The notes under the pieces are model-generated. The model worked only from the letters and a program-made list of their open reading frames with translations. It was not told the origin of the DNA and made no database searches. From assembly GCF_024700885.2 (NCBI RefSeq), contig NZ_CP117016.1: a DNA stretch of 64,000 nt; one strand, given 5' to 3'. Of this stretch, positions 10,203 to 34,614 are shown piece after piece (position 1 is the first letter of the stretch; the number at the start of each line of letters is the position of its first letter). The stretch is from Escherichia coli. GTDB lineage: Bacteria; Pseudomonadota; Gammaproteobacteria; Enterobacterales; Enterobacteriaceae. A program made the translations under genes and the position numbers.

Positions 10203-11669
10203 TCAGGAGCCCAGACGGTAGTTCGGGGACTCTTTAGTAATGGTCACGTCGTGAACGTGGCTTTCCTGAATGCCCGCACCGCTGATACGTACAAACTCCG
10301 CTTTAGTACGCAGTTCGTCGATAGTACCACAGCCGGTCAGGCCCATACAGGAGCGCAGGCCGCCCATCTGCTGGTGAATGATCTCTTTCAGGCGACCTTT
10401 ATAAGCTACGCGACCTTCGATACCTTCCGGCACCAGTTTGTCGGCAGCGTTATCGCTCTGGAAATAACGGTCAGAAGAACCTTTGGACATCGCGCCCAGG
10501 GAACCCATACCACGGTAAGATTTGTAAGAACGGCCCTGGTAGAGTTCAATTTCTCCCGGAGATTCTTCAGTACCTGCCAGCATGGAACCCACCATTACCG
10601 CGCTTGCGCCAGCGGCGATAGCTTTGGCGATATCGCCTGAGAAACGGATACCACCGTCAGCGATAACCGGAATACCGGTGCCTTCCAGGGCTTCTACTGC
10701 ATCAGCAACGGCGGTGATCTGCGGAACACCTACGCCAGTCACGATACGAGTCGTACAGATAGAGCCAGGGCCGATACCGACTTTAACCGCGCTGCAACCA
10801 GCTTCTGCCAGAGCGCGTGCCCCCGCAGCTGTTGCCACGTTGCCGCCGATGATTTGCAGATCCGGATATTTAGCACGAGTTTCACGGATACGCTGCAGAA
10901 CGCCTTCAGAGTGACCGTGAGAGGAGTCGATCAGCAGAACGTCAACGCCTGCGGCAACCAGCGCATCAACACGTTCTTCGTTACCCGCACCTGCGCCAAC
11001 CGCTGCACCAACACGCAGACGACCTTGTTCGTCTTTACAGGCGTTCGGTTTACGTTCTGCTTTCTGGAAATCTTTCACGGTGATCATGCCGATCAGGTGG
11101 AATTCGTCATCAACCACCAGCGCCTTTTCAACGCGTTTTTCGTGCATTTTTGCCAGCACCACTTCACGGGCTTCGCCTTCACGCACGGTGACCAGACGCT
11201 CTTTCGGCGTCATGTAAACGCTAACCGGTTGATTCAGATCGGTCACAAAACGCACGTCACGACCGGTGATGATGCCGACCAGTTCGTTTTCTTCGGTAAC
11301 GACCGGGTAACCCGCAAAGCCGTTACGTTCAGTCAGTTCTTTCACTTCGCGCAGCGTCGTGGTTGGCAAAACAGTCTGCGGGTCAGTTACCACGCCAGAT
11401 TCGTGTTTTTTCACACGGCGAACTTCTTCTGCCTGGCGTTCAATGGACATGTTTTTGTGGATAAAGCCGATACCGCCTTCCTGAGCCAGAGCAATAGCCA
11501 GGCGCGCTTCCGTTACGGTATCCATTGCTGCGGAAAGCATAGGGATATTCAGACGAATAGTTTTCGTCAGCTGGGTGCTGAGGTCAGCAGTATTCGGCAG
11601 AACGGTAGAATGAGCAGGAACGAGGAGAACGTCGTCAAACGTCAGAGCTTCTTTAGCGATACGTAGCAT
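10203..11669 (-). CDS. guaB: IMP dehydrogenase
   Basis: Start set to [16 protein letters not shown] (track ORF extends 23 codons upstream); CBS and IMPDH catalytic motifs. Confidence 0.96.
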
Positions 11670-30089: not shown

Positions 30090-30935
30090 ATGTCCACGAC
30101 ATGGTTTGTAGGAGCCGACTGGCTCGCCGAACATATTGATGACCCGGAAATTCAGATTATCGATGCCCGCATGGCGTCGCCTGGACAGGAAGATCGTAAC
30201 GTTGCTCAGGAGTATCTGAATGGACATATTCCCGGCGCAGTGTTTTTTGATATAGAAGCGCTTTCTGATCACACTTCCCCGCTTCCGCACATGCTGCCGC
30301 GCCCGGAAACGTTCGCCGTGGCGATGCGTGAATTAGGCGTTAACCAGGACAAGCACCTGATTGTCTATGACGAAGGTAATCTTTTCTCAGCCCCACGAGC
30401 ATGGTGGATGCTGCGCACCTTTGGTGTAGAGAAAGTGTCGATTCTGGGTGGTGGACTTGCAGGCTGGCAGCGCGATGATCTGCTGTTAGAAGAAGGTGCA
30501 GTAGAGCTGCCGGAAGGAGAGTTTAACGCCACGTTTAATCCTGAAGCCGTGGTGAAAGTCACCGATGTGTTATTGGCAAGCCATGAAAATACGGCGCAAA
30601 TTATTGATGCCCGCCCGGCTGCACGTTTTAACGCAGAAGTTGATGAACCTCGCCCAGGTTTACGTCGCGGACATATTCCCGGTGCATTGAACGTTCCGTG
30701 GACGGAACTGGTGCGCGAAGGCGAACTAAAAACGACCGATGAACTGGATGCTATATTTTTTGGTCGCGGCGTCAGCTATGACAAACCGATTATCGTCAGC
30801 TGCGGCTCTGGTGTAACGGCAGCCGTGGTTTTGTTGGCACTCGCGACGCTGGATGTGCCAAACGTGAAAATGTACGACGGCGCATGGAGTGAATGGGGCG
30901 CACGGGCAGATTTACCGGTTGAGCCAGTGAAATAA
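30090..30935 (+). CDS. sseA: 3-mercaptopyruvate sulfurtransferase
   Basis: Start set to MSTTWFVGADWL (track ORF begins 53 codons upstream); tandem rhodanese domains. Confidence 0.93.
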   Translation: MSTTWFVGADWLAEHIDDPEIQIIDARMASPGQEDRNVAQEYLNGHIPGAVFFDIEALSDHTSPLPHMLPRPETFAVAMRELGVNQDKHLIVYDEGNLFSAPRAWWMLRTFGVEKVSILGGGLAGWQRDDLLLEEGAVELPEGEFNATFNPEAVVKVTDVLLASHENTAQIIDARPAARFNAEVDEPRPGLRRGHIPGALNVPWTELVREGELKTTDELDAIFFGRGVSYDKPIIVSCGSGVTAAVVLLALATLDVPNVKMYDGAWSEWGARADLPVEPVK

Positions 30936-30951: not shown

Positions 30952-30982
30952 AAAAAACCGCCGAATTTGGCGGTTTTTTATT
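30952..30982 (+). terminator. Intrinsic terminator after sseA
   Basis: AAAAAACCGCC-gaattt-GGCGGTTTTTTATT. Confidence 0.6.
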
Positions 30983-30985
30983 GTG

Positions 30986-31690
30986 CACAGAAAACCCCCA
31001 GCTAGGCTGGGGGTTCCGGAAAGCTTTCAGCTTTGAGCCAGTTATTAAAACCCCTTTTGATTTGTTAAAACACCTTGCGGTCTGGCAACTGCAAGTGTCA
31101 AACAAGAAATCAAAAGGGGGTCCCAATGGGGGACGAAAAGAGCTTAGCGTACACCCGCTGGAACTGTAAATATCACATAGTTTTTGCGCCGAAATACCGA
31201 AGACTGGCGTTTTACGGAGAGAAGCGTAGGGCGATAGGCAGTATTTTGAGAAAGCTGTGTGAGTGGAAAAGCGTACGGATTCTGGAAGCAGAGTGCTGCG
31301 CAGATCATATCCATATGCTTGTGGAAATCCCACCCAAAATGAGCGTATCCGGCGTTATGGGATATCTGAAAGGGAAAAGCAGTCTGATGCTTTACGAGCA
31401 GTTTGGGGATTTGAAATTCAAATACAGAAACAGGGAGTTCTGGTGCCGAGGGTACTATGTCGATACGGTGGGTAAGAACACGGCGAAGATACAGGACTAC
31501 ATAAAGCACCAGCTTGAAGAGGATAAAATGGGGGAGCAGTTATCGATTCCATATCCGGGCAGCCCGTTTACGGGCCGTAAGTAACGAAGTTGAATGCAAA
31601 TGTCAGATCGTATGCGCCTGTTAGGGCGCGGCTGGTAACAGAGCCTTACAGGCGCATTTGAAAAACCTCCGGCTATGCCGGAGGATATTT
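30986..31690 (+). mobile_element. IS200-like insertion sequence (IS200/IS605 family); ends approximate
   Basis: Y1 transposase gene plus upstream hairpins: CCCCCAGCTAGGCTGGGGG (left-end terminator-like) and CCCCTTTTGATTT...AAATCAAAAGGGG pairing that would sequester the tnpA SD. Confidence 0.6.
31126..31584 (+). CDS. tnpA: IS200 transposase TnpA (HUH/Y1)
   Basis: 152 aa from MGDEKSLAYTRWNCKYHIVFAPKYRR; HUH motif (HIHML) and catalytic Tyr region (GYYVDTVG). Confidence 0.9.
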   Translation: MGDEKSLAYTRWNCKYHIVFAPKYRRLAFYGEKRRAIGSILRKLCEWKSVRILEAECCADHIHMLVEIPPKMSVSGVMGYLKGKSSLMLYEQFGDLKFKYRNREFWCRGYYVDTVGKNTAKIQDYIKHQLEEDKMGEQLSIPYPGSPFTGRK

Positions 31691-31692
31691 AT

Positions 31693-31960
31693 TTGCTGGT
31701 CTGGTTCGCGGCCTTTCCAGCAGGTTGTATTACTGCAAGTGTATCTCGTCTACTCAATACTCGCTTTATGCATCAACGATGTCAAGTAGATAAAAAAGGA
31801 TAGATTTTGAATTCATTTGGCTTATCAGTCCGAATTCAGACAAATATAAACAAATCCCGCTTAATATTAAAATATACTAACTGGTAAAAGATATTACTTA
31901 AACGTGTAATTTCACTTTCTTTAAACAACAAAAAACCGCCAAAATCAGGCGGTTTTTTGT
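31693..31960 (+). ncRNA. Candidate sRNA-like element, copy 1 (RyfA-family position between sseA and sseB)
   Basis: Starts with conserved block TTGCTGGTCTGGTTCGCGGCCTTTCCAGCAGGTT shared with copy 2; ends at intrinsic terminator 31931-31960; no convincing ORF. Confidence 0.3.
31931..31960 (+). terminator. Intrinsic terminator
   Basis: AAAAACCGCC-aaaatca-GGCGGTTTTTTG. Confidence 0.55.
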
Positions 31961-32408
31961 TGCTGGTTTGGTTCGCGGCCTTTCCAGCAGGTTCACTTGT
32001 GTTGCATGAACAACGCAGGTGCCTCACAGCAAAAGAATACTCGCTGTTAAGAAATTTTGTGTCAAGTAAAAAACGAGTAATTATTTTTCGGTTAGCGTAT
32101 TATCGACACCGGCCCTTTCCGCCGTCTCGCAAACGGGCGCTGGCTTTAGGAAAGGATGTTCCTTGGCCGTAAATGCAAGTGTATCTCGTCGCTTGCTATC
32201 GCGGCAATATCGCCAGTGGTGATGTCGTGATGCGGTCTTCGCATGGACCGCACAATGAAGATACGGTGCTTTTGTATCGTACTTATTGTTTCTGGTGCGC
32301 TGTTAACCGAGGTAAATAATAACCGGAGTCTCTCCGGCAACAATTTATTGGTGGTTAACAACCTTCAGAACAGCAGGTAAACCCGAATGCCGCCCTTTGG
32401 GGCGGCAT
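31961..32408 (+). ncRNA. Candidate sRNA-like element, copy 2
   Basis: Repeat of the conserved 5' block plus shared AATACTCGCT and TGCAAGTGTATCTCGTC segments; ends at hairpin 32387-32408. Confidence 0.25.
32387..32408. terminator. Hairpin between copy-2 element and sseB 3' end (possible bidirectional terminator)
   Basis: ATGCCGCCC-tttg-GGGCGGCAT with T-rich flank. Confidence 0.45.
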
Positions 32409-32411
32409 ATT

Positions 32412-33188
32412 TTAGATTATCCGGTTCTGTTTAAAGTCACGCAAAAAACCACCCCAGCGACGTTCATAGAATGGCACAATATGTTCGGTAATAAAGTGGC
32501 TAATTCCTTTTTCCCCTTTTTTCACCTGACAAATATCGATGGGTTCATCGCCAGGTAATGTATCGGTCGCTACACTTCCCGCCGCCTGAATAATTTCTTC
32601 GATATCACCATCGGCTTCAATGCCAATAAGTAAATTAGGCTGTGCCTCTTCGTTCTCTTTAATTGAACAAATAAAAGCACGCTTCACCGGCTTAATAGTT
32701 TTAAATAAGGTGGTGAGTGAATCAATCATTTGTGCTGGTGGCTCTGCGACTTCCGATAATATCAGCGATTCACCGCCCTCCAGTACTTCCTGGCTGCTCA
32801 GCGGATTTCCTTCTTCACCAATCAACAAACTGATTTCACGCGGCATAAATTCTTTACCGGTTGGCAGTTTGGCATTAAGGAAGAGCGTTTCGCCAAGGGT
32901 CATCTCAAACAATGTGCGAACGGGCATTACGACAAATGCCTGTTCGTCTTCAACCGCCTGTTGAAGTGCTTCTAACGAGGTGAAAAAAGGAATGACGCTG
33001 GTGCCGTCTTCTTTTTCCCAGTGCTGTAAATCAAGCGCGCTATCTTCAACCACAGCCTCGCCCTGCGCCGCCGTACCAGGCACCCAGACGATGGATTCCA
33101 GTAGAGTACGGAAAAAGGCCGGGCGGTGCGCCGGTTCGGTTGCTGCTTTTTCCAGCAGGTCTTCAAGTTCATTTTTTGTTTCGGACAT
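32412..33188 (-). CDS. sseB: Protein SseB
   Basis: Start set to MSETKNELEDLL (track ORF 3 codons longer). Confidence 0.9.
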   Translation of the reverse strand: MSETKNELEDLLEKAATEPAHRPAFFRTLLESIVWVPGTAAQGEAVVEDSALDLQHWEKEDGTSVIPFFTSLEALQQAVEDEQAFVVMPVRTLFEMTLGETLFLNAKLPTGKEFMPREISLLIGEEGNPLSSQEVLEGGESLILSEVAEPPAQMIDSLTTLFKTIKPVKRAFICSIKENEEAQPNLLIGIEADGDIEEIIQAAGSVATDTLPGDEPIDICQVKKGEKGISHFITEHIVPFYERRWGGFLRDFKQNRII

Positions 33189-33224: not shown

Positions 33225-33324
33225 GCCTGATGCGCCATACTTATCAGGCCTACAAGGGATTCACAATTTGTTGAATTTGCAATACTTTGTAGGCCGGATA
33301 TGGCGTTTACGCCGCATCCGGCAT
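33225..33324. repeat. REP/BIME palindromic repeat cluster
   Basis: GCCTGATGCG...TTATCAGGCCTACA and TGTAGGCCGGATA...GCGTTTACGCCGCATCCGGCA units. Confidence 0.6.
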
Positions 33325-33330
33325 ATTAGT

Positions 33331-34614
33331 TTACGCCGTTAACAGATTAGCAATCGTGCGCACACCAAGTCCCGTAGCACCCGCAGACCACTGTTCAACC
33401 GGCGCTTTACGGTAAGTCGCCGAGCAGTCGATATGCAGCCAGCCTTGCTGATAGTTCTCAACAAAGTGCGACAGGAAGCCCGCCGCCGTGCTCGCGCCTG
33501 CCGGGTACGCCGCGCTTCCGGTATTGTTCAGTTCGGCAAAGTTAGACGGCAGCTGGCTGCGGTGGAACTCCGCCAGCGGCAGACGCCAGAACGGTTCATT
33601 CTCCTGCGCGGCACTCGCCAGCAAGCGACCGGCAAGCGCATCGTCAAAACTGAACAGCGCGTGATAATCATTACCCAGCGCAGTTTTCGCCGCCCCGGTG
33701 AGGGTCGCCGCATCAATGATCAGTTCCGGTTTCTGCGCACTGGCATCAATCAGGCCATCGGCCAGCACCAGACGCCCTTCCGCATCAGTGTTCATCACTT
33801 CAACTTTTTTACCGTTGCGATAGGTAATAATATCGCCCAGTTTGAACGCGTTGCCGCTGATCAGGTTATCCGCACAGCAGAGGAACAGCTTCACGCGCTT
33901 GTTCAGTCCGCGCGTAATGGCAAACGCCAGCGCCCCGGTAACCGTTGCCGCGCCGCCCATGTCCGACTTCATCGAGTCCATAAATGCGGTCTGTTTGATA
34001 CTGTAGCCGCCGGAATCAAAGGTGATGCCTTTACCAACCAGGCACGCGTACACTGGCGCTTCTTTATCGCCAGTCGGGTTGTAATCCAGCGCCAGCAATA
34101 CCGGAGAACGTTCTGAACCGCGCCCGACCGTGTGCAGCCCCATATAACCTTGCTCACGCAGATCTTCGCCTTTGGTGATCCGATAAGTCACACGATCGCC
34201 CGCGACGTTGCTGATCAGATCAACAGCACGCTGTGCCAGTTGCGATGGCCCCAGCTCTTCCGCCGGTGCGTTAATGGTGTCACGCACCCAGTCGATGATC
34301 ATCAGGCGGTTATCCAGTTCCTGGCGCTGGGCATCGTCCAGATCCGGCCACTCCACTTTACGTGTGCCTTTCGGGGCTTTGTAACCTTGCCAGAATGCCC
34401 AGCAGCGATCCGCATCCCAGTCTTCACCGCTTAACTGAACATGCTTGATGCCCAGACCGTCAATCTTGCGCGCCGCACGCTGGATCAGCCCCAGATCGTC
34501 TGTCCCGTTCAAATGCAGGGTAATGCCATCATTATTAATGCTGTAAGTCGCTTTTTCTCCCCAGCGCGCGTCGGCAGGTTGGGTAGAGAGGGTAATCTTC
34601 ATCGCTTCTGTCAT
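33331..34614 (-). CDS. pepB: Peptidase B (M17 aminopeptidase)
   Basis: Start set to [22 protein letters not shown] (427 aa); NTDAEGRL motif. Confidence 0.95.

Follow-up and report, generated by a model that had tools for sequence, protein, structure and literature searches.

An IS200 insertion behind the sseA terminator of Escherichia coli lies within a predicted timR antitoxin sRNA gene

Introduction

The regulation of IS200 has been described in Salmonella. The element is weakly transcribed, its tnpA promoter being intrinsically weak, and its left end is bounded by a bidirectional terminator (PMC4513863). This terminator is a hairpin at nt 12–34 of the element, and it is followed at nt 69–138 by a stem-loop that sequesters the SD sequence of tnpA. 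A small RNA, art200/STnc490, has been described antisense to the tnpA 5′UTR, and the Y125F form of the transposase is listed as catalytically dead (PMC4513863). Members of the IS200/IS605 family integrate as a single strand, 3′ of a short specific target and without duplicating it (PMC5027513). A 2025-26 preprint reports a strong excess of terminator-like sequences immediately upstream of elements of the IS200/IS605 family (bioRxiv 10.1101/2025.07.22.666184).

The second system that bears on the present locus is TimR/TimP (RyfB/RyfA), a type I toxin-antitoxin-like module of enterobacteria. The 5′ end of TimR pairs with the 5′UTR of timP, and this pairing region is followed by an intrinsic terminator (PMC7667032). 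Repression of TimP translation has been demonstrated only for the TimR of Salmonella, in which a timR deletion is viable and results in higher levels of TimP (PMC7667032).

The window, i.e., the whole stretch of DNA that was analysed, comprises 64,000 nucleotides of Escherichia coli (NCBI RefSeq assembly GCF_024700885.2, contig NZ_CP117016.1). The order in the segment of interest is yfhM, sseA, an intergenic region, sseB and pepB, with an IS200 element between sseA and ryfA/timP. The corresponding locus of strain 1190 (NZ_CP023386), which RefSeq has annotated, is 100% identical. An earlier note, made from the letters alone, had placed the element upstream of a set of sRNA-like repeats. The analysis presented here corrects that context to an insertion within what is predicted to be timR, the gene of a type I antitoxin sRNA. 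A literature search, limited to the searchable library, yielded no earlier account in which IS200 had inserted into timR/ryfA. The link between IS200 and timR is a strain-level polymorphism and not a new kind of system.

The IS200 Element

The features of the element are as follows.

30983–31694, plus strand: IS200 (IS200C-like variant), a 712-bp insert, placed by empty-site comparisons and end-to-end alignment of independent copies.
30993–31015, plus strand: IS200 left-end hairpin with a perfect 10-bp stem (fold, inverted-repeat search and Rfam STnc490 alignment).
31051–31119, plus strand: stem-loop of the tnpA 5′UTR, sequestering the SD sequence AAAGGGGGU at 31112–31120 (RNA fold and inverted repeat).
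31126–31584, plus strand: tnpA, encoding a 152-aa Y1 HUH transposase with HUH at residues 61–63 and Tyr at 125 (RefSeq protein WP_000502128.1).
31612–31657, no strand assigned: right-end subterminal imperfect hairpin with 14-nt arms, 93% complementary.
31666–31684, no strand assigned: right-end terminal hairpin, CCTCCGG-loop-CCGGAGG (terminator scan on both strands; folds, ΔG −15.5 kcal/mol).

The element is an IS200 of the IS200/IS605 family with the expected regulatory hairpins. The product of tnpA matches Pfam Y1_Tnp (PF01797) at 1.2e-36 and NCBIfam transpos_IS200 (NF033573) with 140.8 bits (cutoff 55), and solved IS200/IS608/ISDra2 transposases (PDB 2ec2, 2a6m, 2xm3) match it at 1e-22 to 4e-15. 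Its HUH motif reads H61-I-H63, with the single tyrosine of the Y1 type at Y125. At 459 nt, tnpA is the sole ORF of the insert with a match to the family; there is no tnpB, as in the IS200 group of elements of about 0.7 kb. These protein matches, together with the Rfam match given below, bear out the earlier note, which had recognised an IS200-like element with a Y1/HUH transposase at this place downstream of sseA.

The same note had described a terminator-like hairpin and an SD-sequestering stem-loop ahead of the transposase gene, and both were found. The Rfam model STnc490, which represents the IS200 5′ region, matches 30993–31116 with 146 bits compared to a gathering score of 56. In the tnpA 5′UTR fold the SD sequence base-pairs with 31051–31059; the z-score of this fold is −4.2, and none of 200 shuffled sequences gave an equally good one. 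The published positions, nt 12–34 and nt 69–138, map exactly onto the two hairpins of the window if nt 1 is set at 30982. The STnc490 match is on the plus strand, sense to tnpA, whereas art200 is antisense; the orientation of the model or the palindromic content of the region may explain the difference.

As in IS200 of Salmonella and IS200C of E. coli, there is a lone tnpA for a 152-aa Y1 HUH transposase with Tyr 125, and both terminal inverted repeats and a target duplication are absent. An inverted-repeat search of the element revealed no pair joining the two termini, only the local hairpins at 30993–31015, 31612–31657 and 31666–31684. The element is 712 bp long, as against a length of 707 bp given for IS200 of Salmonella (PMC4513863), and has about 96% DNA identity to copies labelled IS200C by RefSeq, a divergence of about 4%. 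It is 100% identical to other copies that carry RefSeq annotation. Thus, it is an already known IS200 variant, annotated by RefSeq at the very same site, and in itself nothing new.

Insertion Site and Distribution

The start of the element can be placed at 30981–30984 and its end at 31692–31695. This ambiguity of up to 3 nt arises because T-rich bases are common to the target and to the right end of the IS, which finishes in TTATT(T). One way of writing the insert is 30983–31694, GTGCACAG...ATATTTATTT. The earlier coordinates, 30986–31690, gave the location correctly, but not the ends, which fall 2–5 nt short on each side when compared with empty sites. A second IS copy that might define the ends was sought within the window and none was found; the left-end hairpin occurs there once.

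Relatives with 99.2–99.3% identity have the empty site, which reads ...GGCGGTTTTTTATTGCTGGTCTGG... in strains LR-28 (NZ_AP027512, of the same haplotype) and MS 21-1. With 30983–31694 deleted, the window is colinear with LR-28 and aligns without a gap (1038 nt in each, 12 substitutions). The insertion was therefore precise and produced no target duplication. Six matches in which homology starts at the IS right junction (H58, H61–65) were considered as possible other insertions at the same site; they proved to be ordinary empty sites with BLAST pieces left unjoined.

Among 5,426 complete E. coli genomes, 30 have the IS at the sseA locus. Comparison with strains without the insertion, as the earlier note had advised, thus reveals a precise empty site in near-identical relatives and an IS in very few genomes, and the element is not native here. 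The haplotype of the window to the right of the IS (at least 99% identity) was found in 38 genomes, 30 of which carry it. The insertion is lineage-specific as well as precise. The 30 genomes are almost identical to each other at the locus, i.e., near-clonal, and the isolates came from humans, poultry, dogs and water. DNA matching the element is far more widespread: it was found in 2,641 of the 5,426 genomes, at 10,272 places in all and at up to 35 places in a single genome. One copy, at fumA/fumC in a strain with 13 such places, is identical to the element of the window.

timR and timP Next to the Insertion

The IS starts 48 nt past the sseA stop codon (30935), directly behind the sseA terminator. 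The features around it are as follows.

30090–30935, plus strand: sseA (3-mercaptopyruvate sulfurtransferase) CDS (RefSeq annotation of the identical strain 1190 locus).
30952–30979, no strand assigned: T1, bidirectional Rho-independent terminator, A6-CCGCC-loop-GGCGG-T6 (sequence; 3′ end of K-12 timR b4811; minus-strand ΔG −18.3 kcal/mol).
31695–31750, minus strand: body of timR copy 1, with the 5′ seed (31734–31750) followed by the conserved middle hairpin (homology to and position relative to K-12 timR b4811; fold).
31757–31785, minus strand: predicted promoter of timR copy 1, TTGACA, 17-nt spacer, GAGTAT (motif conservation).
31794–31972, plus strand: region of the Rfam candidate sRNA IS128 (165.5 bits), ending in T2 (31931–31958).
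31928–32030, minus strand: timR copy 2, with a K-12-type seed and promoter motifs at 32037–32065.
32109–32413, plus strand: ryfA RNA, the timP mRNA (Rfam RF00126, 313 bits).
32174–32190, plus strand: predicted TimR1 target in the timP 5′UTR, identical to 31734–31750 (17/17).
32255–32380, plus strand: timP, encoding a small toxic protein of the inner membrane, 41 aa in length (RefSeq WP_004974226.1 in the identical locus).

In K-12, timR (b4811) is annotated on the minus strand right behind sseA, with its 3′ end in the U-tract of the sseA terminator. T1 is common to sseA on the plus strand and, in IS-free strains, to timR copy 1 on the minus strand. The repeat units occur twice, as T1 (30952–30983) with 31688–31726 and as T2 (31931–31962) with 31955–31993, and a unit is made up of a bidirectional terminator and the 3′ part of timR, which is the conserved hairpin region. 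Judged by homology to the K-12 gene, the sRNA-like repeats of the earlier note are minus-strand timR (RyfB-like) genes for putative antitoxin sRNAs, and the IS, which was said to lie upstream of them, lies inside the first unit. The sseA terminator and T2 were missed by the terminator scan and were judged from sequence and folding; most likely the T-tail for which the scan looks is taken up by the A/T extensions of their stems. The IS128 candidate sRNA fills the gap between the timR copies and ends in the bidirectional T2, which also serves timR copy 2. Farther along, in the sseB-pepB intergenic region, there is a REP-like hairpin at 33292–33336 (Rfam naRNA4, 37.8 bits, sub-threshold).

It is very improbable that the element acts as first read, i.e., from upstream of plus-strand sRNA-like repeats, altering their transcription, with an ATG at its right end (31675) translated into the first repeat. 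An ORF does exist at 31675–31803, the IS does adjoin the repeats, and the IS128 candidate sRNA is on the plus strand. The ATG is located in a hairpin, as had been noted, and opens a 42-codon ORF into the flank, but no gene signal goes with it: it occupies the 3-nt loop of the 8-bp GC-rich right-end hairpin and has no SD sequence upstream. At eight independent IS200 loci this ATG is followed by MPEDIY and then by arbitrary, unrelated tails, giving products of 6–56 aa in all. Since the tails differ at every locus and an SD sequence is lacking, a coding role was rejected and the ORF considered an artefact. In other strains stops break the plus-strand frame through the repeat (in K-12 copy 1 the frame lasts 11 codons), and a coding role for its product LLVWFAAFPAG was likewise rejected, the conservation being explained by the middle hairpin of TimR on the other strand. 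Assignment of the repeats to minus-strand timR genes and their terminators also speaks against this reading. Finally, the terminator scan found the right-end hairpin with AUAUUUAUUU to be terminator-like on the plus strand too, so that the IS is closed in this direction. Because of this hairpin and the weak tnpA promoter (PMC4513863), transcription leaving the IS on the plus strand is unlikely to be of consequence.

On the minus strand, TTGACA and GAGTAT with a 17-nt spacer were found in every timR copy examined (the window, K-12, and the locus sequences L002 and L004), and presumably form the promoter. The transcription start of TimR1 was set by analogy with K-12, 7 nt downstream of the −10 element, which puts the start of copy 1 at 31750. 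With this start, the first 17 nt of TimR1 are a perfect complement to 32174–32190, located 65–81 nt upstream of the timP start codon. Copy 2 has no perfect match of at least 6 nt to the timP 5′UTR of the window strain. Duplex energies were −47.8 kcal/mol for copy 1 vs. −32.1 kcal/mol for copy 2 (RNAduplex); these energies are noisy where long interior loops are involved, and contiguous perfect complementarity was relied on instead. By this measure copy 1, the only copy with a 5′ match, is the predicted cognate repressor of the timP mRNA of the window strain.

Three seed/target alleles covary across K-12, L002, L004 and the window, which argues that the pairing is under selection. Strains have from one to three timR copies at variable positions, and the cognate copy is sseA-proximal in some strains and ryfA-proximal in others. 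Seeds and targets are contained in 653–752 and 978–1074 of the K-12 sequence (L001), in 652–739 and 918–1015 of L002, and in 31734–31750 and 32174–32190 of the window. Many strains have an extra “orphan” timR with a seed that fits the timP of another strain, and the seed of L002 copy 1 matches the UTR of the window strain at 17 of 17 positions. This suggests that the TimR seed alleles are specificity variants shuffled by recombination. In strain E7-1N7 (NZ_CP134805), positions 1460–2300 of the extracted locus (L022) contain a tandem duplication of timR-timP-sseB′, with two timP and three timR core motifs.

The locus resembles TimR/TimP as described in that timP lies inside the ryfA RNA (313 bits in Rfam) and an upstream sRNA on the minus strand would pair by its 5′ end with the timP 5′UTR (PMC7667032). 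It differs in having two timR copies with different seeds, and in the loss to IS200 of the intrinsic terminator that belonged to the cognate copy, which would now need a hairpin derived from the IS.

The covariation of seed and target also bears on the possibility that the IS is a neutral hitch-hiker, no more than a marker of the clone, either because the sseA-proximal timR is not the operative repressor or because mRNA structure alone controls TimP. According to two reports, intrinsic structure of the timP mRNA does also limit translation (PMC11228461, PMC13000454). The near-clonality of the IS-bearing genomes at the locus and the strain-to-strain variation in timR copy number and position agree with a neutral insertion. 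Against it stand the three covarying alleles and the complementarity of copy 1 alone, 17/17 from nt 1, to the timP 5′UTR of this strain, and we consider it quite unlikely.

The 3′ End of TimR1

The insertion point is inside the unit of timR copy 1, about 31 nt from where the native transcript would end and between the RNA body and T1, which is now 712 bp away from that body. The expected effect of the IS is therefore on 3′-end formation of the minus-strand sRNA and not on promoter activity on the plus strand. Reading on the minus strand from timR1 into the right end of the IS gives AAAUAAAUAU-CCUCCGGCAUAGCCGGAGG-UUUUUC, and the terminator scan of this strand identified the hairpin at 31684–31666 followed by TTTTTC. 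The IS hairpin has a ΔG of −15.5 kcal/mol vs. −18.3 kcal/mol for T1. Transcription ending there would yield one further feature.

31661–31750, minus strand: predicted chimeric TimR1 transcript of about 90 nt, with a native 5′ part and an IS200-derived terminator.

The predicted chimeric RNA is 90 nt long, compared to 88 nt for the native form modelled from the empty-site strain Iso00041 (L002), and its predicted fold retains the native seed and middle hairpin.

We propose that the 712-bp IS200 moved into TTATT at the end of the sseA terminator by the single-strand “peel-and-paste” route of Y1 HUH transposases. This terminator is taken to be bidirectional and, without the IS, would also end the convergent TimR copy 1, an antisense RNA that would repress TimP, the type I toxin encoded by ryfA. 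The promoter and seed of timR1 would still work. Transcription from timR1 would enter the right end of the IS and be stopped by the hairpin CCUCCGGCAUAGCCGGAGG with UUUUU, and the product, a chimeric TimR of about 90 nt, would still repress timP. Termination of sseA should be unaffected, because its hairpin and T6 tract are intact, and IS200 itself would be kept silent by its own terminator and by the stem-loop that sequesters the SD sequence. The account as a whole, in which IS200 occupies TTATT of the shared terminator, is probably correct. Of the possible outcomes for TimR1, we regard a chimera that functions as the likeliest, with a probability that we put a little below even. Somewhat more tentatively, we would propose that the right-end hairpin of IS200, as a terminator facing inward, rescues TimR at its 3′ end, giving a natural chimera of host and transposon sRNA.

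Partial or complete loss of TimR1 is a serious rival to a functional chimera. The cognate antitoxin would then be inactivated, TimR1 either reading through antisense to tnpA or being unstable, and TimP would be partly derepressed in this lineage. The native terminator has been moved 712 bp from timR1, and the substitute hairpin has a shorter U-tract, of 5 U followed by C, and none of the native A-tract/U-tract extension of the stem, so that termination or RNA stability could be poorer. In a sister lineage with the same haplotype, an independent IS1 lies between the −10 and −35 elements of the same timR copy. Loss of TimR1 therefore seems to be tolerated, or even favoured, and in Salmonella the timR deletion mutant, with its raised TimP, is viable (PMC7667032). 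On the other side, the IS right-end hairpin has the features by which a minus-strand terminator is recognised, and the resulting RNA is nearly native in length and predicted fold. Moreover, timP is intact and its protein identical to that of IS-free strains (WP_004974226.1), with no sign of compensatory decay. On balance, inactivation of TimR1 appears rather unlikely, and less so than a neutral insertion.

The IS1 is present in three genomes, SCU-172 (NZ_CP054353; 989–1756 of the extracted locus, L021), MSB1_4I and OZ547117, with a 9-bp duplication, AACGATGTC. Its position is equivalent to about 31776–31784 of the window, and it is the second independent IS in timR copy 1.

Salmonella tolerates the deletion of timR (PMC7667032), and so the fact that 30 genomes have kept the insertion is no proof of a working TimR1. 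The near-identity of these genomes at the locus means that no evolutionary time has passed in which selection, in either direction, could have become visible. The 30 isolates do provide a natural allele with which two questions can be asked: does TimR need its own terminator, and can the end of an IS substitute for it? A natural antitoxin sRNA that is a chimera of host and IS would be only a mildly novel possibility.

Target Preference

Independent copies of the element were inspected at eight loci: sseA, cof, gnd, spf, hrpA, plaP, fumA and one hypothetical gene. At all eight, a GC-rich hairpin with a T-run, i.e., a Rho-independent terminator, immediately precedes the left end. The empty sites of K-12 at cof, spf and hrpA have TTTTT or TTATT directly 5′ of GTGCACAG, and the target is thus TT(A/T)TT. 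Insertion after TT(A/T)TT without duplication fits the single-strand integration mechanism of the family (PMC5027513). This IS variant habitually inserts right behind terminators.

The eight loci agree with the terminator-adjacent niche of the preprint (10.1101/2025.07.22.666184), in that every one examined has it. At sseA the terminator is bidirectional, so that a convergent sRNA gene has been truncated, a case absent from the discussion in the preprint. The sseA insertion is an illustration of how IS200, by occupying this niche, can come into conflict with convergent sRNA genes. If the proposed mechanism is true, terminator-seeking IS200 would reshape convergent sRNA genes at their 3′ ends where these have bidirectional terminators in common with their neighbours. 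In NZ_CP048310 (80–150 of the extracted locus, L010), an IS200C copy lies directly behind the T-tract that terminates the Spot 42 (spf) sRNA gene; copies that seek terminators thus also settle beside sRNA 3′ ends.

With respect to orientation, the IS is directed as the upstream gene is at the independent loci examined. Over 1–64000 of the window, the plus-strand GC skew is −0.044 and the minus strand carries most of the long genes, from which the plus strand is taken to be the leading-strand template. The top strand of the window IS200 would therefore be in the orientation disfavoured by the family. By K-12 map position, the copies at cof, hrpA, spf, fumA, gnd and plaP are co-oriented with replication. 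The orientation of IS200 seems to follow the terminator and the upstream gene.
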